DNA of 64,000 bases from Novosphingobium sp. (GCA_020446505.1 JAGREN010000050.1:8423-72422), one strand, 5' to 3'; positions 15,081 to 39,774 are shown, counted from the first letter of the stretch. Notes: generated by a model not told the origin, from the sequence alone. Program-made: numbers and translations.

Positions 15081-15097
15081 CGATACTCGATGCATCA
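15081..15097. promoter_or_regulatory. Operator-like motif A (CGATACT-CGA-TGCATCA), overlapping the palindrome TCATAG-TGG-CTATGA at 15095-15109
   Basis: Intergenic, upstream of diiron copy 2; matches 1598, 17195 and 45231. Confidence 0.55.
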
Positions 15098-15152
15098 TAG
15101 TGGCTATGACGTACAAATTATCGAATCGAAATCGAAAAACAGGACACTGGAA

Positions 15153-15971: not shown

Positions 15972-16009
15972 CAGGCAAAACCAGAGAACATCACCTTCCG
16001 GAGAGATAC

Positions 16010-17252: not shown

Positions 17253-19019
17253 ATGTTCGATACGATCATCAGGGGCGGCAAGATCGCCGATGGCAGCGGC
17301 GACGACAGCTTCAACGCCGATATCGCCATCAAGGACGGCGTCATTGCCGAAATCGGCAAGGTTTCCGGCACTGCCACCAACGAGATCGACGCCGATGGCG
17401 CCCTGGTCACTCCCGGCTTCATCGACCTTCACACCCACTACGACGGCCAGTTCGTCTGGGACGACACCATCGACCCCAGCTTCTCGCATGGCGTGACCAC
17501 GGCGATCGGCGGCAACTGCGGCGTCGGCTTCGCCCCGGTCGAAAAGGAATTCCGGCGTCCGCTGGTCGAAATGATGGAAGGCGTCGAGGAAATCCCCGGC
17601 ATCGTCATCGACGAAGGACTGGACTGGAACTGGCGCAGCTTCGGCGACTATCTCGATCGCCTTGAGCAGAACAGGTTCTCGATGGACGTCGCCAGCCACA
17701 TCACCCACGCGCCGCTGCGCGTGTTCGCGATGGGCGAACGCGCCATCAACCACGAGAAGGCGACTCCCGAAGACATCGAAGTCATGGCCCGCCTCGTGCG
17801 CGAAGCCATGGATGCGGGCGCGGTCGGCTTTTCGAGCGGTCGGCTGCTTGAGCACCTGTCCAGCATTGGCGATCACGTGCCCGGCACCTTTGCCAATGAC
17901 GACGAACTGCTCGCCATCGCCAGCGCCATGGGCTCATCGGGCCACGGCGTGTTCCAGATGATCCCCAAGGGCGCGATCGGCAACATCATCGATCAGGACG
18001 ACATGACCAACAACCGGGTCGCCGAGATGGAGCGTCTGGTTCGCCTGACTCGCGCAGCGGGCCGTCCTTCGACCTACACGGTCATCGAGTTCTCCGACGA
18101 GCCGGAAAACCGCAAGTTCCTCGTCAGCGAAACCGACCGTATCCTCAAGGAAAACCCATCGCTCGAGATGCACCCGCAATGCGCCTCGCGCGGTGTCGGC
18201 TCGATCATGATGCTCGATTCGCATCACCCCTTCAAGTTCAAGCCCGCCTACCTCGAGATCGAAGGCCTGCCAGCGGCGCAGCGTGCCACGGCGATGCGCG
18301 ACCCGGCGCGGCGCGCGGCCATTCTCTCTCAGGAAGATGCTCCGCCCGCGGGCAGCGACCCGATGATCGTGCGGATGGTTTCGCGCATGCCGATGACTTC
18401 GCCCAGGTTCATCCTGATCCGCGATCGCGTGGACTACGAACCGCTGCCCGATCAGACGATCGGCGCGCTTGCCGCCGCTGCGGGCGTGACTCCGCTCGAA
18501 TACCTCTACGATCACATCACTGCTGGCGACGGCACCAATTCCGCGATCTCGTTCTTCCTCAACTACAACGAGGGCAACCTCGACGAAACCTACGAGATGA
18601 TGTCCAACCCCAATGTCATCAGCGGCCTCGGGGACGGCGGTGCGCACGTCCGTCTGATCTGCGACGCCTCGCAGACGACCTTCCAGCTCGCCTTCTGGAC
18701 TCGCGATCGCACGCGCGGCCCGAAGCTGCCGCTCGAATATGTCGTCCGCAAGATGACGCACGACAGCGCGCGGCTCTACGGCATGAACGACCGTGGCCTG
18801 CTCAAGGTCGGCAAGCGGGCGGACATCAATATCCTGGACTACGAAAACCTGAACGTCGGCGTGCCGAAGATGTATTTCGACCTGCCGAGCGGCGCGCCGC
18901 GCATGCATCAGCCTTCGACCGGCTATCTCGCCACCATGGTCAACGGTGAGGTTACGCGCCGCAACGATGCTGACACCGGTGCTCGTCCGGGCCGCCTCTA
19001 TCGCAGCCGCCCGAACTGA
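17253..19019 (+). CDS. N-acyl-D-amino-acid deacylase-like amidohydrolase, copy 2
   Basis: PGFIDLHTHYD, GGNCG, GLGDGGAH, G.LKVGKRAD. Confidence 0.9.
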   Translation: MFDTIIRGGKIADGSGDDSFNADIAIKDGVIAEIGKVSGTATNEIDADGALVTPGFIDLHTHYDGQFVWDDTIDPSFSHGVTTAIGGNCGVGFAPVEKEFRRPLVEMMEGVEEIPGIVIDEGLDWNWRSFGDYLDRLEQNRFSMDVASHITHAPLRVFAMGERAINHEKATPEDIEVMARLVREAMDAGAVGFSSGRLLEHLSSIGDHVPGTFANDDELLAIASAMGSSGHGVFQMIPKGAIGNIIDQDDMTNNRVAEMERLVRLTRAAGRPSTYTVIEFSDEPENRKFLVSETDRILKENPSLEMHPQCASRGVGSIMMLDSHHPFKFKPAYLEIEGLPAAQRATAMRDPARRAAILSQEDAPPAGSDPMIVRMVSRMPMTSPRFILIRDRVDYEPLPDQTIGALAAAAGVTPLEYLYDHITAGDGTNSAISFFLNYNEGNLDETYEMMSNPNVISGLGDGGAHVRLICDASQTTFQLAFWTRDRTRGPKLPLEYVVRKMTHDSARLYGMNDRGLLKVGKRADINILDYENLNVGVPKMYFDLPSGAPRMHQPSTGYLATMVNGEVTRRNDADTGARPGRLYRSRPN

Positions 19020-20531: not shown

Positions 20532-21743
20532 TCAGGCGGCGCGCTCGAAGATCGCGGCGATGCCCTGCCCGCCGCCGATGCACATCGTCTCAAGTGCATA
20601 GCGGCCCTGCATGCGCTCCAGCTCGTAGAGCATGGTCGCGAGGATGCGTCCGCCGGTTGCGCCGATGGGGTGGCCGAGCGAAATGCCCGAGCCGTTGGGG
20701 TTGAGAATTTCGTGGCGCGAATCGTCCTCGCTCCAGCCCCAGCCCTTGAGCACGCCGAGAACCTGCGGCGCGAAGGCTTCATTGAGCTCGACCAGATCGA
20801 TGTCGTTCCAGCCCATGCCGGTGCGGGCGAACAGGCGTTCGACCGCAGGGACCGGGCCGATGCCCATGCGCGATGGCTCGCAGCCAGCCGCCGCCCACGA
20901 ATGGAACCATGCCATCGGCGTGAGGCCGAGTTCCTCCAGCTTGTCTTCTGCGACGACAAGGCAGGCCGAAGCCGCATCGCTCTGCTGGCTGGCATTGCCG
21001 GCGGTTACGACGCCACCCTCTTCCATGGCCTTCAGCTTGCCGAGCGATTCGGGCGTCGAATCGCCGCGCACGCCTTCGTCTTCGGCAAACACGATCGGAT
21101 CGCCCTTGCGCTGCGGAATCGTGATGGGGACCATTTCCTTGTCGAACTTGCCGTCCGCCCAGGCCTTGGCGGCGCGCTGCTGGCTGCGCGCGGCGAACAC
21201 GTCGCATTCCTCGCGCGTGATGCCGTAGTCGCGCGCGACATTGTCAGCCGTTTCGATCATGCCGGTGATGACGCCGAACCGCTCGACCGGCTGAGACATG
21301 ACGCGGCCACGCGCGAGCCGGTCGAACAGCTCGATACCGCCCGCCTTCACGCCGGTGCGGCCCTTGATCGTGTAGTGCTCGACCTGACTCATCGATTCGC
21401 AGCCGCCCGCGATGACGACATCGGCTGCGCCGGTCTGGATCATCATGGCCGCATCGACCACGGCCTGAACGCCGGAGCCGCAGCGACGGTCAAGCTGATA
21501 GCCCGGCACGCTGACCGGAAGGCCGGCCGCGAGTGCCGACCAGCGGCCAATCGCCGGAGCCTCGCCGTTGCCGTAGCCTTGCGAGAACACCACGTCGTCG
21601 ATCCGCTCCGGGTCAACGCCACTGCGCTCCATCAGCGCGCGGATGATGATCGCGCCCAACTCGCCTGCGGGAATGCCCGACAGCTTGCCGAGGAACTTGC
21701 CCACGCCGGTACGGACGGGGCTGACGATGGCGGCTCTACGCAT
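20532..21743 (-). CDS. Acetyl-CoA C-acyltransferase (thiolase)
   Basis: RRCGSG nucleophile Cys, NEAF, GHPIGATG, MCIGGGQG. Confidence 0.95.
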   Translation of the reverse strand: MRRAAIVSPVRTGVGKFLGKLSGIPAGELGAIIIRALMERSGVDPERIDDVVFSQGYGNGEAPAIGRWSALAAGLPVSVPGYQLDRRCGSGVQAVVDAAMMIQTGAADVVIAGGCESMSQVEHYTIKGRTGVKAGGIELFDRLARGRVMSQPVERFGVITGMIETADNVARDYGITREECDVFAARSQQRAAKAWADGKFDKEMVPITIPQRKGDPIVFAEDEGVRGDSTPESLGKLKAMEEGGVVTAGNASQQSDAASACLVVAEDKLEELGLTPMAWFHSWAAAGCEPSRMGIGPVPAVERLFARTGMGWNDIDLVELNEAFAPQVLGVLKGWGWSEDDSRHEILNPNGSGISLGHPIGATGGRILATMLYELERMQGRYALETMCIGGGQGIAAIFERAA

Positions 21744-23383: not shown

Positions 23384-24136
23384 CTAGTCCATCGTCTCGC
23401 CGTCAAAAGTACGGCCCTTGAAATCCTGTTCGAACCATTCGTCGACGAGCTCGGAGCAACGGCGACTGGTGAGCTGCGCCAGTTCGGCGTCGCCATCGAT
23501 CACCGCGCGAGCGAGGCGCGCGCGCATCCGGCGATAGGCCTGCACGCGCTCTGGCCGGTCGATCAGCACGTCTTCGCTGCGCGAGGCGAGCGCGGCGAAA
23601 TCGTAGAGGATCGCCATCAGCAGGTTCAGCACCGAATTGTCCGCCAGAGCGCTGATAAGCTGGAGAAACTCGCGCTCGCTCTTGAGGAAGGCGCGATAAC
23701 CGTGCGCCATTTCCAGGGGTGCGGCCTCGTCCTGCGCGGCAAATTCTTCGAGCCGGGCGAGCAGAACCGGATCGCGGTTGCGACTCGCAAGGACCGCGAG
23801 TTCGGCTTTCAACGGGCCGATGCCGTGGGTGATCTCGGTAAAGTCCGCATCATGCGCGCGCAGGTACAGCGCGGCCATGCGCGTGACATTCATCGTGCTG
23901 GGGCGAGCCGAAAAGTAGCCGCCACCGACGCCGCGCCTGACCGTGACGAAATTTTCCTGCGCGACTCGGCTCGCAGCCTGACGAAGTGTTGCCCGGCTGA
24001 CGTCGAGCTTGGCGATCATGTCGTCTTCGGAACCGAGAAACGTGCCTTCCGAGCTGTCCAGTGAGAGCACCCGCAATGCCTCGGCGGCGCGGTCGACAAC
24101 CGAGCGATTCTGTCCGGACACTGCAGGCTCGCTCAT
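23384..24136 (-). CDS. GntR/FadR family transcriptional regulator, copy 1
   Basis: Start MSEPAVS at 24136. Winged HTH SEDDMIAKLDVSRATLRQA...RRGVGGG plus an FCD-like C-terminus. Confidence 0.88.
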   Translation of the reverse strand: MSEPAVSGQNRSVVDRAAEALRVLSLDSSEGTFLGSEDDMIAKLDVSRATLRQAASRVAQENFVTVRRGVGGGYFSARPSTMNVTRMAALYLRAHDADFTEITHGIGPLKAELAVLASRNRDPVLLARLEEFAAQDEAAPLEMAHGYRAFLKSEREFLQLISALADNSVLNLLMAILYDFAALASRSEDVLIDRPERVQAYRRMRARLARAVIDGDAELAQLTSRRCSELVDEWFEQDFKGRTFDGETMD

Positions 24137-24207
24137 AGACCATCCTTTTTCTGCCGCAGGGCGCGTCCGGATACAGCAGGGATCGACTGGATTCGCATGG
24201 GCAAGCC

Positions 24208-24226
24208 TTATTGAGTGTCCTTTATT
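24208..24226. promoter_or_regulatory. Operator-like motif B (reverse strand AATAAAGGACACTCAATAA)
   Basis: 15/19 match to the copy at 35668; lies in the divergent promoter of regulator 1. Confidence 0.5.
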
Positions 24227-24278
24227 ATTGCAAACCCCGAATGATCCTGCAATGACGCAGCGCAACATGGAGGCAGGC

Positions 24279-25130
24279 ATGGGCCTTGGCGGGAAGACTG
24301 TATTCATCAGCGGCGGCAGCCGCGGCATTGGCCATGCCGTGGCCCTGCGCGCAGCTCGCGACGGCGCAAATATCGTCGTCGCCGCCAAGACAGCAGAGCC
24401 ACATCCGCACTTGCCAGGCACGATCTACACCGCCGCTGAGGAGATCGAGTCGGCAGGCGGCAAGGCGCTTCCGATCGTGCTCGATATCCGCGATGTCGAT
24501 GCTGTCGAAGCCGCAATGGCCAAGGCAGCCGACCACTTCGGCGGCATCGACGTGCTGATCAATAATGCTTCTGCCATCAGCAAGACGCCGACAACGGAAA
24601 CCGAGCCCAAGCGCTACGACCTGATGCACGACATCAACGCGCGCGGGACGTTCTTCGTGTCGAAGGCAGCGATCCCCTACCTGCGCAAGTCGGACAATCC
24701 GCACGTCCTGACCATGTCGCCGCCGATCAATCTCGACCCGGCCTGGTTCGCGCCGCACGTCGCCTACACCATGAGCAAATATGCGATGTCGATGACGGTG
24801 CTGGGCATGGCGGAGGAATTCCGCGGCGAAGGCATTGCCTTCAATTCCCTGTGGCCGCGCTACGGCATCGCCACTGCCGCCATCGAGTTCGCTGCCGCAG
24901 ACGCCGACCAGCTCAAGCACTGCCGCACGCCGGAAATCATGGCCGATGCTGCCTACGAGATCCTGACGCGGCCCTCACGCGAGTGTACCGGCAATTTCTT
25001 CATCGACGACACGCTGCTGGCCGAAACCGGCGTGACCGACTTCACGAAGTACCGTGTCGATCCCACGCAATCGCTGCGCATCGGCATGTTCTTCAAGGAC
25101 GACGACCTGCCGCCGCCGGGCAAGCACTGA
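24279..25130 (+). CDS. SDR oxidoreductase, HSDL2/AtuG-like
   Basis: ATG after GGAGG. SGGSRGIG, AAKTAEPHPHLPGTI, NNAS, YTMSK. Confidence 0.9.
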   Translation: MGLGGKTVFISGGSRGIGHAVALRAARDGANIVVAAKTAEPHPHLPGTIYTAAEEIESAGGKALPIVLDIRDVDAVEAAMAKAADHFGGIDVLINNASAISKTPTTETEPKRYDLMHDINARGTFFVSKAAIPYLRKSDNPHVLTMSPPINLDPAWFAPHVAYTMSKYAMSMTVLGMAEEFRGEGIAFNSLWPRYGIATAAIEFAAADADQLKHCRTPEIMADAAYEILTRPSRECTGNFFIDDTLLAETGVTDFTKYRVDPTQSLRIGMFFKDDDLPPPGKH

Positions 25131-25134
25131 TCAT

Positions 25135-26316
25135 TCAGACGACCCCGGCCGTTTTCAGCGCGCCGATTTCCGCTTCGCTGTAGCCCAGTTCGCCCAGGAT
25201 CTCGGCGTTGTGCGCGCCGACCGCCGCCGGCGGGGTGCGGATTTCGGCAGGATGGCCGCCGAGTTCCACTGGCGCGCGGGTAAGCGGCGCTTCCTTGCCG
25301 ATGCTCGGCACGAAGGTCGGCTGGACGATGCCCAGCCCCTCGACCTGTTCGTGGCTGCGAATCTCCTTTGGCGAGAGCACCGGGCCTGCGGGAAGGTGCG
25401 CGGCGGCCAGTTCGCTCAGTGCCTGCTGCGAAGTGCGGGTCGAACACCAGTACTGCATGGTCTTCGACAGGAACTCGCCCTCCTCTGCCCGCGCCTCGTC
25501 GCTGCCGAATCGCGGATCGTCAGCCCATTCCGGCTTGCCCATCAGTTCGGCCCAGCGTGCGAAGATCGGATTGCCGACGATCTGCGTTACGATCCAACCG
25601 TCCTTGGTACGAAACGAATCGGTCGGCCCGTTGAGGAAGCTGCGGTTACCGATCGCCTTGCGCCCGATCCCGGTCATCGCTTCCTCGATCATCGCGGTGG
25701 ACGCAAAAGCCAGCCCGGTGCCGAGCAGGTTGGCGTCCACTTCCTGCCCCTTGCCGGTGCGCGTGCGCTCGAACAGCGCCATCATCACGCCGTAGGCGGC
25801 GAACAATCCGGTCGAGTGATCGACCCAGGTAATCGGTGTGCGGAACGGCACCTCTCCGGTGCCGGTCAGGTACTGCGATCCGCTCATCGCCTGACCGACA
25901 GAATCGAATCCGGGGCGGCTCGCCCACGGGCCTCGCGTACCGAACGAGGAGATGTTGGCGAGCACGATGTCCGGCTTGATTCTGCACAACGATGCATAAT
26001 CTATTCCCATTCGCTTCAAGGCGTTGGCAGGCACGTTGGCGACCACCACGTCGGCGCTGGCGACCAGACGCGAGAGCACCCCGCTCGCCCCTTCGGCGCG
26101 CGGATTGAAGGTCATGCAGCGCTTGTTGCGGGCAAGCTGGAGGAACCCTGCACCGTCCCCGGATTCCGCGACAGGGCCGATAAACCGGTCCTCGCCACCG
26201 CCCGGCTTCTCGATGCGGATCACGTCCGCGCCGAAATCGGCGAGCAGGGTCGCGCAATAAGGGCCGGACACATAGCGTCCGAAATCGAGCACGCGGATAC
26301 CGTCAAGCGCGGCCAT
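25135..26316 (-). CDS. Family III (CaiB/BaiF) CoA-transferase
   Basis: RVLDFGRYVSGP, GADVIRIE, RNKR; catalytic Asp in WVDHSTG. Confidence 0.93.
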   Translation of the reverse strand: MAALDGIRVLDFGRYVSGPYCATLLADFGADVIRIEKPGGGEDRFIGPVAESGDGAGFLQLARNKRCMTFNPRAEGASGVLSRLVASADVVVANVPANALKRMGIDYASLCRIKPDIVLANISSFGTRGPWASRPGFDSVGQAMSGSQYLTGTGEVPFRTPITWVDHSTGLFAAYGVMMALFERTRTGKGQEVDANLLGTGLAFASTAMIEEAMTGIGRKAIGNRSFLNGPTDSFRTKDGWIVTQIVGNPIFARWAELMGKPEWADDPRFGSDEARAEEGEFLSKTMQYWCSTRTSQQALSELAAAHLPAGPVLSPKEIRSHEQVEGLGIVQPTFVPSIGKEAPLTRAPVELGGHPAEIRTPPAAVGAHNAEILGELGYSEAEIGALKTAGVV

Positions 26317-26368
26317 TCACATCACCTGTCCATAGGGTCACTGCAAGGACGGCGGGCCTTGCATATCG

Positions 26369-26383
26369 TTGCGATTCTCGCAA
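26369..26383. promoter_or_regulatory. Palindrome TTGCGA-TTC-TCGCAA (motif D) in the divergent promoter
   Basis: Perfect 6-bp arms; related sites at 53441 and 53458. Confidence 0.4.
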
Positions 26384-26448
26384 TAGCGGCCCCAATTCCC
26401 GCCCCCTAACCCGCAGATCGTATTGCGGGGCCAAACCGGAGAGCCTCT

Positions 26449-27600
26449 TTGGATCAGGAAACCTTCGCCCTCTTGCGCGAGACAGTGCGTCGCTTCGTTG
26501 ACGAGCGTCTCATTCCCAACGAGGACCGCGTCGAGGAAGAAGACGCCGTCCCCGCCGAAATCATCGAGGAGATGAAGGAACTGGGCCTGTTCGGCCTCAC
26601 CGTTCCCGAGGAATACGGCGGGCTTGGCCTGACATCGTCCGAGGAAATCCAGGTCATCTACGAACTGGGCCGCACCAGCTTTGCCTATCGCTCCGTCATC
26701 GGCACGACCGTCGGCATCGGCAGCCAGGGCATCGTCATGGACGGCACCGAGGAGCAGAAGCAGGAATGGCTGCCCAAGCTGGCCGAAGGCATGTTCGCCA
26801 GCTTCGCGCTGACCGAGCCTGACGCAGGCTCCGACGCCGGTTCGATCAAGACCCTCGCCATCCGCGAAGGCGACAACTACCGCGTCAACGGCACCAAGCG
26901 TTACATCACCAACGCGCCGCGCGCGGGCATGTTCACGCTGATGGCGCGCACCCAGCCCGACGTGAAGGGCGGCGCGGGCGTCACTGCCTTCATCCTGCCC
27001 GCCGACACGCCAGGCATCAGCTTCGGCAAGCTCGACAAGAAGATGGGCCAGAAGGGCACGATGACCTGCGACGTCATTTTCGACGACGTCATCATCCCAG
27101 CCTCCAACATCATCGGCGGCGTCCCCGAGCGCGGCTTCAAGACCGCGATGAAGGTGCTCGACCGTGGCCGTATCCACCTCTCCGCCCTGTCGAGCGGCAT
27201 GTGCGACCGTCTGGTCAAGGAAAGCGTGCAGTACGCGGTCGACCGCAAGCAGTTCGGCCAGCCGATCGGCGCCTTCCAGCTCGTGCAGGGCATGATCGCT
27301 GACAGCCGCACCGATGCCTATGCCGCATGGCTGATGACGCAGGACGTCGCCCGCCGCTTCGACGAAGGCGACAAGGTTTCCGCCGATGTCGCCTCGACCA
27401 AGTATTTCGCCAGCGAGGCGCTGGGCCGCGTGGCGGACCGCGCCGTGCAGATCCACGGCGGCGCCGGCTACATGGCCGAATACAAGGTGGAACGCTTCTA
27501 CCGCGACGTGCGCCTGATGCGCATCTACGAAGGCACCAGCCAGATTCAGCAGACCATCATCGCCAAGGCACTGCTGCGCGAAGCCGGCCTCAAGGTCTGA
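26449..27600 (+). CDS. Acyl-CoA dehydrogenase
   Basis: TTG start after GGAGA. FALTEPDAGSD, QIHGGAGY, IYEGTSQIQ catalytic Glu. Confidence 0.95.
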   Translation: MDQETFALLRETVRRFVDERLIPNEDRVEEEDAVPAEIIEEMKELGLFGLTVPEEYGGLGLTSSEEIQVIYELGRTSFAYRSVIGTTVGIGSQGIVMDGTEEQKQEWLPKLAEGMFASFALTEPDAGSDAGSIKTLAIREGDNYRVNGTKRYITNAPRAGMFTLMARTQPDVKGGAGVTAFILPADTPGISFGKLDKKMGQKGTMTCDVIFDDVIIPASNIIGGVPERGFKTAMKVLDRGRIHLSALSSGMCDRLVKESVQYAVDRKQFGQPIGAFQLVQGMIADSRTDAYAAWLMTQDVARRFDEGDKVSADVASTKYFASEALGRVADRAVQIHGGAGYMAEYKVERFYRDVRLMRIYEGTSQIQQTIIAKALLREAGLKV

Positions 27601-27619
27601 CAGGGACAGGATTGATTCA

Positions 27620-29092
27620 ATGAGTGACGTGAAAACGCTTGGCGTCGTCGGCGCCGGACCGATGGGTCAGGGCATCGCCCAGATCGGCCTCCAGTCGGGC
27701 CTCAATGTCGTGCTGTACGACCTCAACCGCGAGGCGCTGGAGAAGTCGGCAGCGACCATGTTCGGCTTCATCCAGAAGCTGGAAGACAAGGGCAAGCTGG
27801 AGCCGGGCGCGACCGAAAGCGCGAAGGCGCGGCTCAAACTCGCCGACGGCGTGGCCGATTTCGCGCCGTGCGAAGCCGTGATCGAAGCGATCATCGAGCG
27901 GCTTGAACCCAAGCAGAGCCTGTTCGCAGAACTGGAAGGTGTCGTCGCTCCCGATGCGATCATCGCCAGCAACACCTCGTCGCTGTCGGTCGCGGAGATC
28001 GCGGCGGGCTGCAAGACCAAGGACCGCATCTGCGGCCTGCACTTCTTCAACCCCGTCCCGCTGATGCGTCTGGTCGAAGTCGTCGTCGCGCCCGGCACCA
28101 GCCAGGAAGTGGCCGACCGCGCCGTCGCGCTGTCGCACAAGATCGGCAAGGATCCCGTCGTCGTGAAGGACGGCCCCGGCTTCCTCGTGAATCTTCAAGG
28201 CCGCGCGCTGCCGCAGGAAGGCCTGCAGATCGTGCAGGACGGCGTGAGCGATCCCGGCACGGTCGACCGGATCATGCGCGACGCCATGAATTTCCGCATG
28301 GGTCCGTTCGAGCTGATGGACCTGACCGGTATCGACGTGAACTTCCCGGCCTCGACCTACATCTACGAAGGCTACCAGCACGATCCGCGTCTCAAGACGA
28401 CGACGCTGCACGCGCTGATGCGCTACTCCGGCAACCTCGGCCGCAAGACCGGGTCGGGCTTCTTCGACTATTCGGGCGATGCGGGCTTCCCGACCTCGCC
28501 CGAGGCATCGGCCAATCCGCCTTCGTTCAGCCCCCGTATCGGCGAGGCCTCCGCCGATCTCGACGCGCTCGGCAAGGACGTGGGCTGGACCGAAGGCAGT
28601 GACGTTACCCTGATCGCGCCCATCGGCGAGGATTGCTCGACCGCTTGCGCAAGGCTCGGCCTCGATCCGAAGACCACCGTCGCGGTGGACTGCACCGCGC
28701 GCACCAACATGCACCTCACCGTCATGGCTGCACCCGGTGGCGGCGAACTGGCCGCACAGGTGGCGGACTGGCTGCGCTCGAAGGGCTTCAAGGTCGAGGC
28801 GATCAAGGATTCACCCGGCTTCGTGTTGCAGCGCATTCTCGGCATGATCGCCAACCTCGGCTGCGAACTGGCGCAGATCGGCGTGGGCACGCCTGCCGAC
28901 ATCGACCTCGCCATGAAGCTGGCGCAGAACTATCCCAAGGGTCCGATGGAAATCGCCGATTGGCTCGGGCTGGAAAAGCTGCACACCATCATGCGCACCA
29001 TGCAGGAAATCACCGGATCGGACCGCTACCGCCCCGCGCTGTGGCTGCGCCGCCGCGCCATGCTGGGCCTGTCGGTTTACACCGCCGACTGA
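27620..29092 (+). CDS. 3-hydroxyacyl-CoA dehydrogenase (PaaH-like, duplicated C-terminal domain)
   Basis: GAGPMG, EAIIE, ASNTSS, GLHFFNP, MGPFELMD. Confidence 0.93.
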   Translation: MSDVKTLGVVGAGPMGQGIAQIGLQSGLNVVLYDLNREALEKSAATMFGFIQKLEDKGKLEPGATESAKARLKLADGVADFAPCEAVIEAIIERLEPKQSLFAELEGVVAPDAIIASNTSSLSVAEIAAGCKTKDRICGLHFFNPVPLMRLVEVVVAPGTSQEVADRAVALSHKIGKDPVVVKDGPGFLVNLQGRALPQEGLQIVQDGVSDPGTVDRIMRDAMNFRMGPFELMDLTGIDVNFPASTYIYEGYQHDPRLKTTTLHALMRYSGNLGRKTGSGFFDYSGDAGFPTSPEASANPPSFSPRIGEASADLDALGKDVGWTEGSDVTLIAPIGEDCSTACARLGLDPKTTVAVDCTARTNMHLTVMAAPGGGELAAQVADWLRSKGFKVEAIKDSPGFVLQRILGMIANLGCELAQIGVGTPADIDLAMKLAQNYPKGPMEIADWLGLEKLHTIMRTMQEITGSDRYRPALWLRRRAMLGLSVYTAD

Positions 29093-29103
29093 GGGACGAC
29101 TGC

Positions 29104-30306
29104 ATGTACAACCTGCTAAGCGGCATGACCGTAGTCGAAGGCGCGGCGTTCATCGCCGGGCCGAGCTGCGGCCTCTACCTTGCGCAAATGGGCGCACAGG
29201 TGATCCGCTTCGATGCCATCGGCGGCGGGCCGGATTCCAAGCGCTGGCCGCTCGGCAAGCAGGGGCAGAGCCTCTACTGGGAAGGGCTGAACAAGGGAAA
29301 GCGCTCGATTGCGCTCAACCTCGGCAAGCCCGAAGGGCGCGAACTCGCGCAGCGCATCGCCACCAGCGGCGACGGCCTGTTCGTCACCAATTTCCCGGTC
29401 AACGGCTTCCTTTCCTACGAGGCTCTCTCGGCCCTGCGCTCGGACCTCATCGCCCTGCGCGTGATGGGCTGGGCGGACGGCAGCCCGGCCGTGGACTACA
29501 CGATCAACGCCAGCGTCGGCGTTCCCTACATGACCGGGCCTGCCGACGATGACCGCCCGGTCAATCACGTTCTTCCCGCATGGGACTTGCTCGCAGGTGG
29601 CTACGGCGCTTTCGCCCTGCTCGCTGCCGAGCGCGAGCGGGCGAAATCCGGCAAGGGCCGCGAAGTGCGTCTCTCGCTCTCCGACCTTGCGGCAGCGACC
29701 ATGGGCAACCTCGGCAATGTCGCCGAAGTGCTTTCAACCGGCGCTGACCGATCACGCAGCGGAAACAACCTGTTTGGAGCCTTCGGGCGCGATTTCGTCA
29801 GTGCCGACGGCGTTCGCGTGATGCTCGTGGCGATCACGCCGAAGCAGTGGAACGGCCTTGTCTCCGCGCTCGGCATCGAAAGCGAGATGACGGCTCTGGA
29901 AAGCGAACTCGGCGTTTCGCTGGCGAAGGACGAAGGTGCGCGCTTCACCCATCGCTCCAGGGTCGATCCGGTGTTCGAAAAGGCCATCGCGACTTTCCCC
30001 TTCGAGAAGCTGGGGCCGATGTTCGACGAGGCGGGCTGCACCTGGTCGGTCTACCGCTCGCTTCACGAAGCACTCTCGACTGAGCCGCGCCTGTTCGGCG
30101 ACAATCCGATCTTCTCGGACGTCACCCATGCCGGCGGCATGACCTACCCCACGCCGGGAGCCTTCGCGCGCATCCCCTCCGACGAGCGCGAACCAGCCGC
30201 ACCCAGCCCCGCGATCGGCCAGCACACCGACGAAGTGCTGGCGGAACTGCTTGGCCTGTCGAGCGGCGAAATCGGCGCATTGCATGACCAGGGCCTCGTG
30301 GCCTGA
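29104..30306 (+). CDS. mct: Mesaconyl-CoA C1-C4 CoA-transferase (2-methylfumaryl-CoA isomerase) homologue
   Basis: [65 protein letters not shown] match the recalled Chloroflexus Mct along the whole length. Confidence 0.85.
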
Positions 30307-30337
30307 CCCTCCTGACCTGACGGAAAGCGACGTTACC

Positions 30338-31981
30338 ATGACTGACTGGATCGCCCTTGCATCGAGCGCCGCCGAAGCCGCTCGCGCCTATGCCGAAGCC
30401 GCGCGGGCGAAGACTGCCGCCGCCATCGCGCCCGAGGGCAAGATCGACGCTGCCAGGGCCGATGCCGAGCAGCGCATCGTCCACGGCTTCGCCTGGATCG
30501 CGACAACGGCCGAGGCGCTCGCCGCGACTGCCGACTGGGCCGAACGCGCCAAGGCCGCCGGTCACTTCGGCGAGATCGAGGAACTGACCCTTCGCGTGGG
30601 CTTTGGCGAATATCTCGCGCAGCTTCTGGGCGGCGTGCCGATGAGCCAGAACGAGATCGTGCGCCCCGGCGAGCTTGGCCTCACCGACGCCGCCTCGGCG
30701 CTCGCCGCCGATCCCGCAGCCGCGCAGTTCCTCGCAGAGGGAAATACGGCCACCACGCGCGCTGCTCTGGCGAAGATGCTGGCGGACGGCATGGTCCCCA
30801 ACGAATCGCTCGGCGACGAAACTCTCGACATGATCCGCGACCAGTTCCGCTCCTTCGCGGCGGACCGGATCGCGCCCAAGGCGCACGAATGGCATCTCGC
30901 CGACGACCTCATCCCCGATGAAGTGGTCAACGAGATGGCCGAATTGGGCGTGTTCGGCGTCTGCATCAAGGAAGAGTACGGCGGCCTTGGCATGGGCAAG
31001 CTCGCCATGGTGCTCGTCTCCGAAGAACTGTCGCGCGGCTGGATCTGCGCCGGTTCGCTCGGCACCCGCTCGGAAATCGCGGGTGAGCTGATCGGCGAGA
31101 ACGGCACCGAGGAGCAGAAGCGCAAGTGGCTGCCTGCCCTTGCCGACGGCTCTGTGCTGCCGACTGCCGTGTTCACAGAACCCGATACCGGCTCCGACCT
31201 CGCTTCGGTGCGCACCCGTGCGATCATGGGTGACGACGGCTCGTTCACGATCCAGGGCGCGAAGAACTGGATCACCCACGCCGCGCGCACCGATCTGATG
31301 ACGGTGTTGTGCCGCACCGATCCCGATACGCCCGGCCACCGGGGCCTGTCGATGCTTCTGGCCAGCAAGACCCGCGGCACCGAAGCGACGCCCTTCCCCG
31401 ACGAAGGGCTCGACGGCAGCGAGATCGAAGTGCTCGGCTATCGCGGCATGAAGGAATATGCCCTGTCGTTCGACGGCTTCCCGGTCGCGGCGGAAGGGCT
31501 GCTCGGCGGCGAGCAGGGCAAGGGCTTCGTGCAGCTCATGCAGACCTTCGAAGGCGCCCGCATCCAGACGGCCGCGCGCGCCATCGGCGTGGGCTGGAAC
31601 GCCTATGACCTCGCGCTGCGCTACGCGCTCGACCGCAAGCAGTTCGGTGAGCCACTGATCCGCTTCCCGCGCGTTGCCGACAAGCTGGCGATGATGGTGG
31701 CCGAACTGGTCATGGCCCGCGAGCTGACCTATTCGGCAGCGCGCCACAAGGACAGCGGCAAACGCTGCGACATCGAGGCCGGCATGGCCAAGCTGATCGG
31801 CGCGCGCGTGGCATGGACCAATGCCGACAATGCCGTGCAGATCCACGGCGGCAACGGCTATGCGCTGGAATATCAGGTGAGCCGCGTGCTGTGCGACGCG
31901 CGCATCCTCAACATCTTCGAGGGCGCGGCGGAAATCCAGGCACACGTCATCGGGCGCGGACTGGTATCCTCGCGCAACTGA
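30338..31981 (+). CDS. mcd: (2S)-methylsuccinyl-CoA dehydrogenase homologue
   Basis: N-terminal extension (FGEYLAQ..GG.PMSQ.E), [39 protein letters not shown] match the recalled Rhodobacter Mcd. Confidence 0.87.
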
Positions 31982-32038: not shown

Positions 32039-32980
32039 TCAGGCCGTCAGCGCCGCGCGCCGCGCGCGGGCATCGCTGCCCAGCATGTCCATCACCATTG
32101 CGCGCTTCAGGAACAGGTGCGCATCGCACTCGTCGGTGAAGCCCATGCCGCCGTGGGTCTGGATGTTGGCCTTGGCGTTCTCGAATGAAGCGCGCTTGGC
32201 GAGCGTACGGGCAGCGGCGGCTTCCACCGCATCGTCCATGCCAGCACCGAACACGGTGGCGGCGAACAACGTCTGCGTGTCGGCAGCAGAAGCCCGCGTC
32301 GCCATGTCGGCGCATGAGTGCTTGATCGCCTGAAACGCGCCGATCGGCTGGCCGAACTGCTCGCGCTGCTTGGCATAGTCCACGGCCATGTCAGTCGTCG
32401 CCTGCGCAATGCCAGTGAGGTAGGCCGCGATCAGAACTTCAAGGCGAAGCGCAGGCTGGGCGTTGCCTGCCCCGCCCTCGATCCGCTCGAAGGTCATGGT
32501 GTGATCGAGCCCGCCGTCAGTCGCTGCCAGCGACAGGTCGGACCGGGCACGCAGTGACGCTCCGCCGGGACCGAAGACGACGATCCATTCAGCCCCCTCG
32601 CCATCAAGCACATAACCATCGGCAATACCGAAGGTGGCGCGCGCCTCGCCCGAGATCAGCGCATCGCGCGTGGCTTCGTCGGTCGCGAGATGCGGCGCGC
32701 AAAGCTGGGCAAGCACGCCGGGCGAAACGAGATTGCGGCCCAGCGCACGGGCGACCAGCGCCTCTTCGGGCAGGCCGAGGCCAAGACCGCCCTGATCCTC
32801 GGGCAGGCCGAGGCCGAACAGGCCAAGCTCGCAAATCTGACCCCAGACTTCGGCTTCCGCCGCACCGCCATGAGCCTTCGCGTCGCGCAGCCGTTCGACC
32901 GGCAGCACGTCTGCAAGGAATGAGACGATCGTATCCTCGATCGCGCTCTGGTCTTCATCGGGAATGAGATCGACGATCAT
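32039..32980 (-). CDS. Acyl-CoA dehydrogenase family, short non-catalytic beta-type subunit
   Basis: Start overlaps the partner stop (ATGA). Lacks the SEP.AGSD motif; keeps REQFGQPIGAFQAIKH and QTHGGMGFT. Confidence 0.86.
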   Translation of the reverse strand: MIVDLIPDEDQSAIEDTIVSFLADVLPVERLRDAKAHGGAAEAEVWGQICELGLFGLGLPEDQGGLGLGLPEEALVARALGRNLVSPGVLAQLCAPHLATDEATRDALISGEARATFGIADGYVLDGEGAEWIVVFGPGGASLRARSDLSLAATDGGLDHTMTFERIEGGAGNAQPALRLEVLIAAYLTGIAQATTDMAVDYAKQREQFGQPIGAFQAIKHSCADMATRASAADTQTLFAATVFGAGMDDAVEAAAARTLAKRASFENAKANIQTHGGMGFTDECDAHLFLKRAMVMDMLGSDARARRAALTA

Positions 32981-34128
32981 ACCGCTTTTGGTCCTTTCGG
33001 CAGGCCGAGCACACGCTCGCCGATGGTGTTGCGCCGGATTTCGGAGGTGCCTCCGCCGATTGCCCACTTGAAGCATTCGAGGAAGTGCGCCGGATAGTTG
33101 TAGCCCGCTCGTTCGAGCGAGTGCGGGCCGAGCAGGTCGAAGGCAGCTGCATTCACCCGGCGGGTCAGTTCACCGAAATAGAGCGCGACGATATTGCCTT
33201 CCGCGCCCGGCACCGTTTCGTGCATGCCGCGCGAGATCGACGCTGCCGTCAGCGAGCGAAGCGCCATGACTTCGGACTTCAGACCCGCGAGCATTTCAAG
33301 CTGCACATCGTCCGCGCCGCCGGGGAACGACTTCACCGCCTCGATCACGCGGTCGACTCGAGTTGCCAGTTCGATCTGGTGCGCCACGGTGCCGGTGCCG
33401 CGTTCGAAACCGAGCGTGGTCATCGCCGTCTTCCAGCCCTGATTGACCTCGCCGACCACGTTCTTCAGCGGGATGCGCACGTCATCGTAGAAGCACTGGG
33501 CGAAGTGTTCGAGGCCCGCCATGGTCTTGATCGGGCGCACTTCGAGGCCGGGAGCCTTCATGTCGCCGACGATCCAGGTGAGACCGCGATGCCGCGTCTC
33601 GTTGGGATCGGTGCGCACCAGCAGTTCCTGCCAGCGGGCGTGCTGGGCATAGGTCGTCCAGATCTTGGTGCCGTTGATGACGAGATCGTCGCCGTCGATC
33701 TCGCCCTTGCATTTCAGGCTGGCAAGGTCCGATCCCGCGCCCGGCTCGGAAAAGCCCTGGCACCAGTTTTCGGTGCCGTTGAGAATCGTCGGCAGATACT
33801 TCGATTTCTGCTCTTCGTTGCCCGAGACGATCATGGTCGGCCCGGCATGGCTCAGCGCCACGAACATGCAGCCGGATGGCGGGCCGCCAGCCAGCGCATA
33901 TTCCTCGTGCCAGATCAGCTGTTCGAGCACGGATGCGCCGCGTCCGCCATATTCCGTGGGCCAGTTGATGCCGGCCCAGCCGCCTTCGAATTGCTTGGCC
34001 TGCCAGGCAAGGTCGAACTCGCGCATGGCATCGCCGTCGTCGGGGCGGTTCTTCGGGACGTTGTCCTGCAGCCAGTCGCGGCATTGCTCGCGGAAGCTGG
34101 CAAGCTCAGCGGATTCGACGATCTTCAT
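32977..34128 (-). CDS. Acyl-CoA dehydrogenase, catalytic alpha-type subunit (ChsE/FadE-like)
   Basis: WCQGFSEPGAGSDLASL, LGFERG, IGGGTSEI. Confidence 0.92.
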   Translation of the reverse strand: MKIVESAELASFREQCRDWLQDNVPKNRPDDGDAMREFDLAWQAKQFEGGWAGINWPTEYGGRGASVLEQLIWHEEYALAGGPPSGCMFVALSHAGPTMIVSGNEEQKSKYLPTILNGTENWCQGFSEPGAGSDLASLKCKGEIDGDDLVINGTKIWTTYAQHARWQELLVRTDPNETRHRGLTWIVGDMKAPGLEVRPIKTMAGLEHFAQCFYDDVRIPLKNVVGEVNQGWKTAMTTLGFERGTGTVAHQIELATRVDRVIEAVKSFPGGADDVQLEMLAGLKSEVMALRSLTAASISRGMHETVPGAEGNIVALYFGELTRRVNAAAFDLLGPHSLERAGYNYPAHFLECFKWAIGGGTSEIRRNTIGERVLGLPKGPKAV

Positions 34129-35703: not shown

Positions 35704-36966
35704 ATGGCCACCAAGAGTGAAGAGACAAAGGACGACGGCCTCGTCCGCAGCATGCTGACCGACGAATCGATCCAGTTGATGCGCGACCGCATCGGTTTCC
35801 CCAATCCCACCGTCCGCACCGGCTTCACCGACGAGCCGTGGAACACCATCGCAACGGCAGACGCGATGCGCCGCTTCTCGTACTGCATCGGTGACGACAA
35901 CCCGCTGTACTGCGATCCCGAGTACGCGAAAAACACCCGCTGGGGCGAAACCATTGCTCCGCCTGCCTTCGAGAAGTCGATGGGCATTATGGGCAATGCG
36001 CTCATGGAAGACCCGGAGTGGGAAAAGGCAACCTCCAAGGCCCTGCGCGGCGTGCAGCTGTTCCACTCGGGCGGCGAGAACTTCTACTGGGCCCCGATCA
36101 CCGAGGGCGTGAAGCTGTGGCGTTCGCGCTACGTCAAGCAGGTCGACGTCAAGGAATCGGAATATGCCGGCCGCTCGGCCATCGTCACCAACGGCCTGTG
36201 CATGTGGGACGAGAACGACAAGGTCTACGTCGATGGCGTCGACTGGTTCGTCCACGCCGAACGCAAGAAGCGCACCGACAGCAAGTCGAAATACGCCAAG
36301 GAAGAGCCTGCCTTCTACACCGACGAGGAAATGAAGGAGATCGAGGACTGCTACGATAACGAATATCGTCGCGGCGCCGACACGCTCTATTACGAAGATG
36401 TCGAAGTCGGCACCTCGCTGCCCAAGATGGTCAAGGGTCCGTTCCAGATCACCGACCTCATCAACATGCACATGGGCACTGGCTGGATCCTTTACGGCTG
36501 CTGGCCGAACCGCCTCGCCTATGAAGGCCGCAAGAAGCTGCGCGGCTTCTACACCCGCGACGAGTTCAATGCGTGGGATTCGCTGCAGCGCGTCCACTGG
36601 GACAAGGATCTTGCCGACAAGGTCGGCGTGAAGATGATGTACGACATCGGCGCGGTCCGTCAGTTCCACGTTTCGAACTACCTGACCAACTATGCCGGTG
36701 ACGATGCCTTCATCCACCGCATCAAGTTCGAGTTCCGCCGCTTCAACTACACGGGCGACGTGACCTGGATGACCGGCGAGATCGTCGACAAGCGGATCGA
36801 TCCCAAGCTCGGCCCGGTGATCGAGGTCGTCCTGCGCGGCACCAACCAGCGCGGCAACGACAACATCAACGCGACATCGACCATCATGGTCGCCAGCCGC
36901 GAGCATGGTCCGGTCAAGCTGCCCGAACCGCCCGCGCCGACGCCGCACCGCCGGCCGACGCCCTGA
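35704..36966 (+). CDS. Double hot-dog (FAS1-like/MaoC) acyl-CoA hydratase/dehydratase
   Basis: IGDDNPLYCDPEYAKNTRWG..IAPP N-domain; DSLQRVHWD...G..Y..G and FEFRRFNYTGD C-domain. Confidence 0.82.
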   Translation: MATKSEETKDDGLVRSMLTDESIQLMRDRIGFPNPTVRTGFTDEPWNTIATADAMRRFSYCIGDDNPLYCDPEYAKNTRWGETIAPPAFEKSMGIMGNALMEDPEWEKATSKALRGVQLFHSGGENFYWAPITEGVKLWRSRYVKQVDVKESEYAGRSAIVTNGLCMWDENDKVYVDGVDWFVHAERKKRTDSKSKYAKEEPAFYTDEEMKEIEDCYDNEYRRGADTLYYEDVEVGTSLPKMVKGPFQITDLINMHMGTGWILYGCWPNRLAYEGRKKLRGFYTRDEFNAWDSLQRVHWDKDLADKVGVKMMYDIGAVRQFHVSNYLTNYAGDDAFIHRIKFEFRRFNYTGDVTWMTGEIVDKRIDPKLGPVIEVVLRGTNQRGNDNINATSTIMVASREHGPVKLPEPPAPTPHRRPTP

Positions 36967-37850: not shown

Positions 37851-38621
37851 ATGGCCGAAGTCACGCTGAGCCGTCCATCCGATCACGTCGCCGTCATTCG
37901 TATCGACCGTCCCGAGGCAATGAACGCGCTGAGCCTCGACGTGCGCCAGCAGATCGCGGCGATCCTGCACGAACTCAACGAAGACGACGAGACCCGCGTC
38001 ATCGTGCTGACCGGCGGCGAGAAAGTGTTCGCGGCGGGCGCGGACGTTGCCGAACTCAACAAGCGCGACATTCTGAGCAAACAGTTCCGGCTTTCGCGGG
38101 TCGCCTGGGACGCGCTCGATTCCTGCCGCAAGCCGATCATCGCGGCCGTCAACGGCTATGCACTGGGCGGCGGCTGCGAGATGGCGCTTCATTGCGACAT
38201 CATCATCGCAGGCGACGAGACCAAGCTTGGCCAGCCCGAAGTGCGGCTCGGCATCATGCCGGGCGCTGGCGGCACCCAGCGGTTCGTTCGCGCGGCCGGC
38301 AAGTATCAGGCAATGCGCTGGCTTATGACCGGCGACCAGATTCCGGCGCAGACCGCTTACGAAATCGGCCTCGTCTCCGAAGTCGTGCCTGAAGCCGAGG
38401 TGCAGGGCCACGCGCTCAAGCTGGCGGAAAAGATCGCGCGCCTGCCTCCGCTCGCCATCGAGGGCAGCAAGCAGGCCGTCATCATGGGCGCGGAAGCCTC
38501 ATTGCCGACGGCCCTCGCCTTCGAGAACAAGATCTTCCAGCTGCTGTTCGCCAGCGAAGACAAGGCCGAAGGCACCAGCGCCTTCCTCGAAAAGCGCAAG
38601 CCCGAATTCAAGGGGCGTTAG
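37851..38621 (+). CDS. Enoyl-CoA hydratase (both catalytic Glu present)
   Basis: FAAGAD, GGGCEMA, GQPEVRLG. Confidence 0.93.
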   Translation: MAEVTLSRPSDHVAVIRIDRPEAMNALSLDVRQQIAAILHELNEDDETRVIVLTGGEKVFAAGADVAELNKRDILSKQFRLSRVAWDALDSCRKPIIAAVNGYALGGGCEMALHCDIIIAGDETKLGQPEVRLGIMPGAGGTQRFVRAAGKYQAMRWLMTGDQIPAQTAYEIGLVSEVVPEAEVQGHALKLAEKIARLPPLAIEGSKQAVIMGAEASLPTALAFENKIFQLLFASEDKAEGTSAFLEKRKPEFKGR

Positions 38622-38708: not shown

Positions 38709-39770
38709 TTAAAGTTCCATCATGCTCGCATAGCGTTCGACCTGCGCGCCGGCACCGCCGTGGCGCATCTCGAAAGCGATAAGCTGGCGGAAGTGGTGGC
38801 CGACCGGATATTCCTCGGTCACGCCGATGCCGCCGTGAAGCTGGATGCCCTGCGCGCCGACGAAGTGGCCTGCCTGCGCGACCTTGACGCGGCAGGCCGC
38901 TGCCATTGCGGACCGGTCAGGGCCGTTACGCACCAGCGCATCGAGCCCGCGCAAGACCACCGAACGCGCCTGTTCCAGCTCGATGAACATGTCGGCGAGC
39001 CGATGCTGAAGCGCCTGGAACTGGCCAATTAGCTGGCCGTATTGTTGTCGGGTGTTGAGATAGTCCTTCGTGAGGTCGAAAGCGGTCTGCATCACGCCAA
39101 CCGCTTCGGCGCTTTCGACGACGTGTTCGCAATCGAGGGCGAATTCGATGGCGGAAAGCGCGTCACTAGAGATCAGCGTGGCTGGCGTTGCATCTAGCAC
39201 TAGATCGCCAGCAGGGCGCATGTCGAACAGCAGGTATTCGCGCACTTTCGCCGCGTCGGCGGCCACTTCGAACAAGCCGATCTTGCCGTCAGGCGTCCTT
39301 GCCGAGACGAGGAAGCTCGTCGCCAGCGGTGCGCCGATAATCGCGGTCTTGGTGCCCGTCAGCGACCAGCCGTCGCCCGCCTGCGTTGCCGTAGTCTCGA
39401 CCCAGGACGGATCGCCGCCCTGCCCCGCCTCGACATGCGCGACGAGAGGAATTTCCTCGCCGGAAGCCACAGCCTCGGCGCGCTCGGGCGCCAGTGCCAG
39501 CAGCAGTTGCGTGGCAGTCACCGCGACACCGACATAGGGCGCCGCGACCAGCCCCTTGCCCAGTTCCTCGGCGATGATGGCGTTGTCGTAGACGTTGCCG
39601 TCAAGCCCGCCCTGATCCTCCGGAATGGCGACCATCAGCCAGCCGAGTTCGGCAAACTGGCCCCACTGCGCAGCCATGTCCGCGCCCGAGCCAGCTTCCT
39701 GCTCGACCCAGCGCGCCGCCGCGTCGCGGAACATCACCTGTTCTTCGGTGGGAAGTACCTTCATGCCCAT
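38709..39770 (-). CDS. Acyl-CoA dehydrogenase beta-type subunit (PimD-like)
   Basis: RQQYGQLIGQFQALQHRLADM, QLHGGIGVTEE; lacks SEP.AGSD; GAGGA RBS. Confidence 0.88.
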   Translation of the reverse strand: MGMKVLPTEEQVMFRDAAARWVEQEAGSGADMAAQWGQFAELGWLMVAIPEDQGGLDGNVYDNAIIAEELGKGLVAAPYVGVAVTATQLLLALAPERAEAVASGEEIPLVAHVEAGQGGDPSWVETTATQAGDGWSLTGTKTAIIGAPLATSFLVSARTPDGKIGLFEVAADAAKVREYLLFDMRPAGDLVLDATPATLISSDALSAIEFALDCEHVVESAEAVGVMQTAFDLTKDYLNTRQQYGQLIGQFQALQHRLADMFIELEQARSVVLRGLDALVRNGPDRSAMAAACRVKVAQAGHFVGAQGIQLHGGIGVTEEYPVGHHFRQLIAFEMRHGGAGAQVERYASMMEL

Positions 39771-39774
39771 CGCG

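Follow-up and report, generated by a model that had tools for sequence, protein, structure and literature searches.

An operon joining homologues of methylsuccinyl-CoA dehydrogenase and mesaconyl-CoA isomerase in Novosphingobium, with a possible role in the breakdown of a methyl-branched dicarboxylic acid

Two enzymes of mesaconyl-CoA chemistry, the (2S)-methylsuccinyl-CoA dehydrogenase Mcd and the mesaconyl-CoA isomerase (2-methylfumaryl-CoA isomerase) Mct, are each known from one assimilation pathway, namely the ethylmalonyl-CoA (EMC) pathway and the 3-hydroxypropionate (3HP) bi-cycle, respectively. What, then, might homologues of both be doing side by side in a beta-oxidation operon of a heterotrophic alphaproteobacterium? 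The question is raised by a stretch of 64,000 nucleotides (nt) from Novosphingobium sp. (GCA_020446505.1, JAGREN010000050.1:8423-72422; GC content ~64%), which was analysed as a whole and is hereafter called the window. Here four plus-strand genes, acd-hbd-mct-mcd, fill positions 26449-31981 exactly, from the start codon of acd to the stop codon of mcd, this being the very interval delimited in the original prediction for this DNA. With moderate confidence, we propose that a catabolic route for a methyl-branched dicarboxylic acid has its middle section encoded in this operon. The genes, as defined by a codon-position GC filter combined with searches against Pfam, NCBIfam and the PDB, are as follows:

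26449-27600, plus strand: acd, TTG start with a GGAGAG ribosome-binding site upstream, 383 amino acids (aa)
27620-29092, plus strand: hbd, 490 aa, a PaaH-type NAD-dependent 3-hydroxyacyl-CoA dehydrogenase
29104-30306, plus strand: mct-like gene, ATG start, 400 aa, a family III CoA-transferase with a CoA_transf_3 domain
30338-31981, plus strand: mcd, ATG start, 547 aa, a homologue of (2S)-methylsuccinyl-CoA dehydrogenase

The database matches and the intergenic gaps of 19, 11 and 31 nt bear out the claim that Mct and Mcd homologues are adjacent and accompanied by an acyl-CoA dehydrogenase (ACAD) and a PaaH-like dehydrogenase. The array is bounded by a convergent gene 3' of mcd and, across a spacer of 132 nt, by a divergent family III CoA-transferase gene 5' of acd. 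A longer open reading frame (ORF) for the mct-like gene, beginning at 28633, was discarded as an upstream over-extension: homology begins at the ATG at 29104, just past the hbd stop codon. Homologues closest to the mct-like protein (84-95% identity) come from Novosphingobium or Sphingomonadaceae metagenome-assembled genomes (MAGs), and the window DNA occurs in activated-sludge metagenomes, which makes the host an uncultured sphingomonad. An actinobacterial origin, to which an MDMPI_N domain, the paired ACADs and the GC content had pointed, was discarded once every close homologue turned out to belong to Sphingomonadaceae.

The mcd product matches the Mcd of Paracoccus denitrificans (PDB 6es9) with 654 bits, the alignment covering chain residues 14-550. 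Identity is 59% overall, rising to 67% in the ACAD core and falling to 39% in the N-terminal extension, which in the window protein likewise places ~170 aa ahead of the core. In Mcd, Arg252, Arg376 and Arg421 bind the terminal carboxylate, Ala285 and a shifted Phe287 form the pocket for the C2-methyl group, Glu535 is the catalytic base, and Ser248, Thr418, Glu380, Tyr375 and Lys379 provide structural support (PMC5798300). All 12 residues that we checked are retained in the window protein (S248, R252, A285, F287, Y375, R376, K379, E380, T418, R421, F534 and E535), with second-shell changes relative to 6es9 at Tyr243, which becomes Trp, and Ser283, which becomes Pro. On these sequence grounds, we regard the mcd product as an Mcd.

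For the mct-like product, the top NCBIfam family is TIGR04253 (mesaconyl-CoA isomerase/2-methylfumaryl-CoA isomerase) with 395.4 bits, the next family reaching 107. Among proteins of known structure, it matches the Mct of Roseiflexus (PDB 7xkg; 397 bits) and that of Chloroflexus aurantiacus (PDB 8apq; 381 bits, 46% identity, nearly gapless). Full-length alignment to both involves four indels of 1-2 residues and no Frc-type glycine-rich loop insertion; such a flexible loop is a feature of the Frc-type intermolecular transferases. In Mct, Asp165 is catalytic, and Arg47 and Tyr136 bind the free carboxylate of mesaconate (PMC9813914). All three are conserved in the window protein (D161, R47 and Y132), as are Asp135, Asn100 and Phe101, and the first three are invariant across all 121 members of an alphaproteobacterial Mct-like clade comprising the window protein and homologues P0001-P0120.

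To place the operon in a comparative setting, one genome per species was scanned with the mct-like protein, which yielded 80 loci whose cluster genes were tabulated by tblastn. Where a lineage is named these are nearly all alphaproteobacterial; a few MAGs are assigned at the phylum level only, and one is given as Gammaproteobacteria. In 32 of the 80 loci a homologue of Mcd with 55% identity or more is encoded within 10 kb of mct, and in 19 mcd follows mct directly or after one small gene. By chance, ~0.5% would be expected if the gene occurs once per 4-Mb genome. Because it recurs to this extent, the adjacency of mct and mcd is not due to chance. Across the 17 closest loci, those with an Mct at least 66% identical to that of the window, the genes are found as follows:

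mcd: 16 of 17
acd: 13 of 17
thiolase: 13 of 17
hbd: 11 of 17
small gene after mct, a hydratase homologue: 9 of 17
CitE/HpcH lyase: 3 of 17

The small gene encodes a protein of 269-278 aa with weak hot-dog Pfam matches and a 170-bit match to itaconyl-CoA hydratase (PDB 8khg). This Ich-like hydratase gene stands directly 3' of mct in 25 of the 80 loci, and itaconyl-CoA hydratase also converts mesaconyl-C4-CoA to (S)-citramalyl-CoA (PMC12290011). The relatives' lyase matches best, at 182 bits and under the cut-off, the family RipC/Ccl, which acts as citramalyl-CoA lyase when itaconate is degraded. In Novosphingobium pentaromativorans (locus L001) the genes run co-directionally as acd-hbd-mct-hydratase-mcd-thiolase-lyase, an arrangement shared by N. 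bradum (L015); Erythrobacter litoralis has acd-x-hbd-mct-hydratase-mcd-ech-thiolase. A Bradyrhizobium-labelled MAG has acd-ech-hbd-mct-hydratase-mcd and shares with the window the divergent CoA-transferase, an FCD regulator and an MDMPI gene, while Sphingobium tyrosinilyticum (L013) possesses a stand-alone trio of mct-hydratase-lyase; mct, hydratase and lyase also come together in L001, L009 and L015. With the nearest relatives (L005-L008), the synteny of the window spans from the thiolase to the ech gene. Taken together, these arrangements suggest one round of beta-oxidation, followed by conversion of methylsuccinyl-CoA via mesaconyl-C1-CoA, mesaconyl-C4-CoA and citramalyl-CoA to pyruvate and acetyl-CoA.

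Such conservation bears on the simplest alternative, that there is no coupling at all, each of the four genes being an independent paralogue within an island rich in ACAD and CoA-transferase genes. The window does hold at least six ACAD genes, five family III CoA-transferase domains and at least eight enoyl-CoA hydratase (ECH) genes, besides many ligase genes. Yet the gene order is kept from Novosphingobium to Erythrobacter, Sphingosinicella and the Bradyrhizobium-labelled MAG with differing flanks, and we consider a fortuitous assembly highly improbable.

Two further contexts of mct were encountered in the comparative set. The first, seen in Sphingobium and others (L025-L028, L034, L035, L042, L050, L058, L064, L070, L077 and L078), has the form mct-hydratase-acd'-thiolase ... 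CoA-transferase ... mcd', with an mcd' product ~59-61% identical to the window Mcd and encoded mostly 6-9 kb 3' of mct (~3-4 kb in L070 and L077). The second is characteristic of Phenylobacterium (L041, L045-L048, L052, L056, L059, L062, L063, L065, L066 and L068), where mct is flanked by an acd'' (~32% identity) and an ech (~43% identity) in the order acd''-mct-ech, and neither an Mcd nor the hydratase is within reach; this context suggests another use of the Mct-like clade. Genes for AtuA and a carotenoid oxygenase occur near the cluster in two relatives. One of the loci (L007) is labelled Novosphingobium sp. Chol11; a link to the bile-salt clusters of that strain was dropped, the published clusters being different in content.

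The route that we propose would begin with activation of the free acid, probably by the divergent SUGCT-like CoA-transferase. One round of beta-oxidation would follow, with Acd first oxidising the (methyl-branched di)carboxylyl-CoA that enters, a PaaF-like hydratase and the PaaH-like Hbd the next steps, and a thiolase releasing acetyl-CoA and methylsuccinyl-C1-CoA. Mcd would then oxidise the latter to mesaconyl-C1-CoA, the Mct-like enzyme would shift the CoA intramolecularly to C4, and an Ich/Meh-type hydratase and a citramalyl-CoA lyase would complete the conversion to pyruvate and acetyl-CoA. We infer these activities, and the order in which Mcd precedes the Mct-like enzyme. For thiolysis to yield methylsuccinyl-C1-CoA, the methyl group must be on C4 of the 3-oxoacyl-CoA, which points to a 3-methyladipate-type acid activated at its distal carboxyl. 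3-Methyladipate would thus fit as the substrate; methylsuccinyl-CoA could have many other origins, and this guess is drawn from chemistry rather than from data.

Candidates for the activating, hydrating and thiolytic steps lie around the operon, including the thiolase and the CoA-transferase that had already been noticed nearby:

25135-26316, minus strand: family III CoA-transferase (Pfam CoA_transf_3, 358 bits)
20532-21743, minus strand: thiolase (Pfam Thiolase_N/C), 4.7 kb off and on the opposite strand
37851-38621, plus strand: crotonase-type ECH, closest to PaaF

The CoA-transferase has succinate-glutarate CoA-transferase as its top NCBIfam family (207 bits, under the cut-off) and SUGCT as its top PDB match (9br7; 182 bits), and a homologue adjoins acd in L003, L005-L009, L012, L014, L015, L018 and L020; it is a candidate for activating the free dicarboxylate with succinyl-CoA as the donor. 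The thiolase scores 657 bits against PRK06205 (cut-off 551) and 370-380 bits against the 3-oxoadipyl-CoA thiolase models, under their cut-offs. With the thiolase encoded 3' of mcd in N. pentaromativorans it shares 50% identity; it keeps its position in L005-L008, and is the likely partner for the thiolytic step. The ECH reaches 360 bits against PRK08138 (cut-off 355) and 290 bits against PaaF (under the cut-off of 371). Being 62% identical to the product of the ech between acd and hbd in L003 and kept in L005-L007, it is the likely partner for the hydration step.

Within the operon itself, Hbd shows 3HCDH_N and two 3HCDH stretches in Pfam, scores 509 bits against PRK08268 (cut-off 508) and 364 bits against the PaaH model TIGR02279 (under the cut-off of 669), and matches PDB 3mog over its full length (271 bits), in keeping with the long PaaH architecture of ~480-500 aa and a duplicated C-terminal domain. 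It appears closest to the PaaH (3-hydroxyadipyl-CoA dehydrogenase) type and not to the 280-aa butyryl-type Hbd. The acd product, with its three ACAD domains (Acyl-CoA_dh_N/M/1), is of a generic short/medium-chain type, its top PDB match being FadE3 (4iv6; 274 bits), and it reaches no NCBIfam equivalog cut-off. As an aside, acd is far more conserved than its operon partners, the products of the window and of N. pentaromativorans being 91% identical for acd and 69-78% for hbd, mct and mcd. The PaaH-type Hbd, the PaaF-like ECH and the SUGCT-like CoA-transferase together fit a round of beta-oxidation on a dicarboxylyl-CoA.

Could mcd instead serve acetate assimilation, with hbd, acd and the thiolase feeding crotonyl-CoA and the remaining EMC genes ccr, ecm, mch and mcl lying elsewhere? 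In a variant of this explanation, Mct would divert mesaconyl-CoA to pyruvate and acetyl-CoA. The resemblance of the window Mcd to the proven EMC enzyme, which at 59% identity extends to an identical active site, would be accounted for in this way; thiolase and Hbd could yield 3-hydroxybutyryl-CoA, and in Alphaproteobacteria the EMC genes often lie dispersed. Yet the Hbd is PaaH-type, and a dicarboxylate-type CoA-transferase accompanies the cluster, which sits inside a catabolic island. Further, Pfam scans of all large ORFs detected no ccr, ecm (MM_CoA_mutase), mch or mcl in the window, in agreement with what had been stated for the first three, and none of the four occurs in five related loci with Pfam annotation. 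In Parasphingopyxis lamellibrachiae an isocitrate lyase gene (L086 20854-21203) lies ~7 kb 3' of mct-hydratase-mcd-thiolase; hence, this organism probably does not depend on the EMC pathway. We therefore rate an EMC function of the operon as quite unlikely.

Several observations weigh against the degradative route that we favour. The absence of the EMC genes just described holds for the window and the five loci, and an EMC pathway may be encoded elsewhere in the genome. The thiolase and the ECH are encoded outside the operon, and alignment of Acd with Mcd shows that the arginine triad of the latter is absent, leaving no sequence clue to a dicarboxylate substrate for Acd. None of the RNA runs searched for the window sequence carries it. 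No Ich/Meh-type hydratase or citramalyl-CoA lyase was recovered by tblastn (E<=1) in the 64 kb, nor is either present within 10 kb of mct in L005-L008, L010, L012, L016 and L021. The transferase, too, departs from its characterised counterparts. While a check against profile models, as suggested in the original prediction, places TIGR04253 on top, its 395.4 bits remain under the curated equivalog cut-off of 725. In the four characterised intramolecular Mcts, position 43 is Leu or Ile and narrows the active-site entrance, and Arg75 and Arg104 of the Chloroflexus enzyme sit on the adenosine phosphate of CoA (PMC9813914). In the window protein, position 43 is Pro, and both arginines are lost (Arg75 to Gly, Arg104 to Asn). 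The clade as a whole has Pro at position 43 in 119 of its 121 members and is variable at the CoA-phosphate arginines, Arg occupying position 75 in 23 of the 121. With the pocket residues kept and these arginines lost, the acyl pocket looks like that of Mct, unlike the 'cork' around the CoA nucleotide, and the mode of transfer or the substrate could differ.

These departures lend themselves to another reading, namely that the Mct-like enzyme repositions CoA on a saturated dicarboxylyl-CoA rather than on mesaconyl-CoA, either by interconverting the C1 and C4 esters of methylsuccinyl-CoA or by moving the CoA of 3-methyladipyl-CoA from the beta-methyl-blocked end to the open end. There is a precedent and parallel in ThnP, an intramolecular CoA-transferase that works with an ACAD after thiolysis (PMC11659651), and the Pro43 of the clade, the missing Arg75 and Arg104, the shortfall in the TIGR04253 score and the lack, in half of the closest clusters, of the hydratase that would use mesaconyl-C4-CoA all speak in its favour. 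On the other side, Arg47 and Tyr136, the residues for the mesaconate carboxylate, are invariant, and the Ich/Meh-type hydratase is the tightest partner of mct over the 80 loci, a pairing that makes sense only if the product is mesaconyl-C4-CoA. On balance, we hold a saturated substrate to be unlikely.

A third possibility, that Mct takes part in a partial 3HP bi-cycle co-assimilating glyoxylate, propionate or CO2 and that its neighbours are coincidental, corresponds to the way in which Mct genes are currently read in Erythrobacteraceae, where they are taken to signify CO2 co-assimilation and where a partial bi-cycle has been proposed for Erythrobacter sp. NAP1 and Porphyrobacter (PMC10674011). 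Here the neighbours are beta-oxidation genes, and the required mcl and mch are absent from the window and the annotated related loci; no large ORF of the window has an mcr- or pcs-like domain set, these two genes not having been searched for by sequence. Moreover, the cycle has no role for Mcd, yet mcd is linked to mct in all but one of the 17 closest loci. This makes a bi-cycle function very unlikely.

Returning to the catabolic route, the lack of a hydratase and a lyase means that the exit is incomplete in the window itself: in this lineage, the genes for the final two steps lie elsewhere, unless the transferase serves a different purpose. A 420-aa double hot-dog protein (35704-36966) was considered as a stand-in for the hydratase and rejected, as its sequence shows no resemblance to the Ich/Meh-like protein. 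Its PDB matches are restricted to faint ones to MaoC/ChsH1, and the genes beside it, for an AMP-ligase and a heteromeric ACAD pair, make membership of a different system probable. The hybrid of two assimilation pathways put forward in the original prediction is thus upheld by homologies reaching to the level of the active site, by the linkage of mct and mcd and by the hydratase and lyase in the operons of relatives; it falls short in the window, which is devoid of those two genes and has a sub-threshold Mct-like protein with an altered gate and altered arginines.

From gene spacing and conserved gene order alone, we infer that acd-hbd-mct-mcd are co-transcribed. A scan for terminators found no plus-strand terminator-like site inside the operon, and overall fewer such sites than in shuffled sequences. 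Two elements were identified in the divergent intergenic region:

26359-26387, plus strand: promoter-like TTGCAT-N17-AATAGC, read from the sequence of the 132-nt region
26369-26383: perfect palindrome TTGCGATTCTCGCAA in the spacer of the promoter-like element 5' of acd, a candidate operator

A scan for consensus promoters returned none and did not call the first element; similar TTGCA-N17-(A)ATAG motifs are present 5' of acd in L001, L005-L008, L010, L014 and L018, and it could represent the promoter of the operon. The palindrome is nearly conserved in L005-L007 (GTGCGATTCTCGCAA) and may be the operator for an FCD/GntR-type regulator encoded nearby (23384-24421).

Looking beyond the window, we see about equal grounds for and against a more general proposal: that an EMC-type Mcd and an Mct of the distinct Pro43 clade, usually joined by a hydratase of the Ich type and a lyase of the Ccl type, constitute a widespread alphaproteobacterial module serving as the exit from methyl-branched dicarboxylate beta-oxidation. 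Its end products would be pyruvate and two acetyl-CoA, and its substrates perhaps 3-methyladipate derived from isoprenoid or alicyclic compounds. In the literature that we searched, Mcd and Mct are nowhere brought together in a catabolic route, nor linked with beta-oxidation or methyladipate. Strong support from gene context suggests a route assembled from known kinds of enzymes that is undescribed as a combination.

The surrounding island is, judging from its gene content, catabolic, with three P450s, two Baeyer-Villiger monooxygenases, two epoxide hydrolases and several alcohol dehydrogenases; such an inventory would suit terpenoid or alicyclic sources, without being diagnostic of them. The P450 genes are in tandem (~11330-15071), and the monooxygenases are encoded at 4309-6525 and 43458-45248. 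There are further duplicates within the island, with pairs of an epoxide hydrolase and a 'Metal_hydrol' gene at 370-2500 and 15072-17155, and two Amidohydro_3 proteins of ~600 aa at 7438-9243 and 17253-19019. A protein of 847 aa (49362-51905, plus strand) contains two fused family III CoA-transferase domains (two Pfam stretches, 507 bits); enzymes of this family are usually homodimers or, as with BbsEF, heterodimers encoded by two genes. Two pairs of adjacent ACAD genes (32039-34128 and 38709-40956, both on the minus strand) each include one short or degenerate member and are each adjoined by an AMP-ligase gene; heteromeric alpha2-beta2 ACADs with such a short or degenerate partner are known from the degradation of steroid and terpenoid side chains. 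Finally, a sulfotransferase-family gene (57968-58867) and two coding-like ORFs that have no Pfam match (53613-54518 and 57324-57836), all on the plus strand, lie amid ECH and CoA-transferase genes.

If true, the route would give both Mcd and Mct their first catabolic role and would show how methylsuccinyl-C1-CoA that does not derive from the EMC pathway is handled. It would supply the missing downstream steps for routes that are expected to end in methylsuccinyl-CoA, namely those from isoprenoid methyl-branched diacids, methyl-substituted alicyclics and methylaromatics. Metagenome surveys treat the KEGG orthologue '2-methylfumaryl-CoA isomerase' as a marker for the 3HP bi-cycle. Were the wider module real, most such genes in heterotrophic Alphaproteobacteria and metagenomes would be catabolic and no sign of carbon fixation, and this habit of annotation would need correction. 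The Pro43 Mct clade and the window Mcd might also be used as parts for synthetic pathways linking C1- and C4-ester chemistry.

How, finally, does this system compare with those already known? With the Mcd of the EMC pathway of Paracoccus and Rhodobacter (6es9), the window Mcd shares both architecture and active site, and presumably catalyses the same reaction to mesaconyl-C1-CoA. The window gene, however, stands next to mct in a beta-oxidation operon that has no ccr, ecm, mch or mcl nearby, and the proposed source of its substrate is thiolysis rather than ethylmalonyl-CoA mutase. Likewise, the mct-like protein has in common with the Chloroflexus Mct the catalytic Asp, the mesaconate-binding residues and 46% identity, and the chemistry of the second cycle of the 3HP bi-cycle is matched in the relatives by the hot-dog hydratase and the CitE-type lyase that come after mct. 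In contrast to the bi-cycle, the host here is a heterotrophic alphaproteobacterium, the hydratase is missing from the window, and the substrate would come from Mcd and not from Mch.

The lower phenylacetate/adipate pathway (PaaF, PaaH and PaaJ) offers a parallel in that the PaaH-type Hbd, the PaaF-like ECH and the thiolase of the window fit a round on a C6 dicarboxylyl-CoA. None of the window proteins, however, reaches the equivalog cut-offs for PaaH, PaaF or PcaF, and, unlike this pathway and the modified 3-oxoadipate pathway for 4-methylcatechol, the window is without paa or mml genes. In the latter pathway, thiolysis of 4-methyl-3-oxoadipyl-CoA reportedly gives methylsuccinyl-CoA.

The degradation of methylsuccinate in pseudomonads also proceeds via mesaconyl-C4-CoA and citramalyl-CoA to pyruvate and acetyl-CoA; the hydratase of the relatives has a homologue in an itaconyl-CoA hydratase, and their lyase comes nearest to RipC/Ccl. 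According to the 2025 paper on that pathway, the only Mcd known before was the EMC enzyme. There, a different ACAD makes the C4 thioester directly, so that no Mct is needed, whereas here a C1-type Mcd would be combined with an intramolecular transferase. A similar logic is seen in ThnP/ThnO of anaerobic naphthalene degradation, where thiolysis leaves the thioester on an inconvenient carboxyl and an intramolecular CoA-transferase moves it without ATP; ThnP, however, belongs to family I and acts before the dehydrogenase, on a cyclohexane dicarboxylate (PMC11659651).

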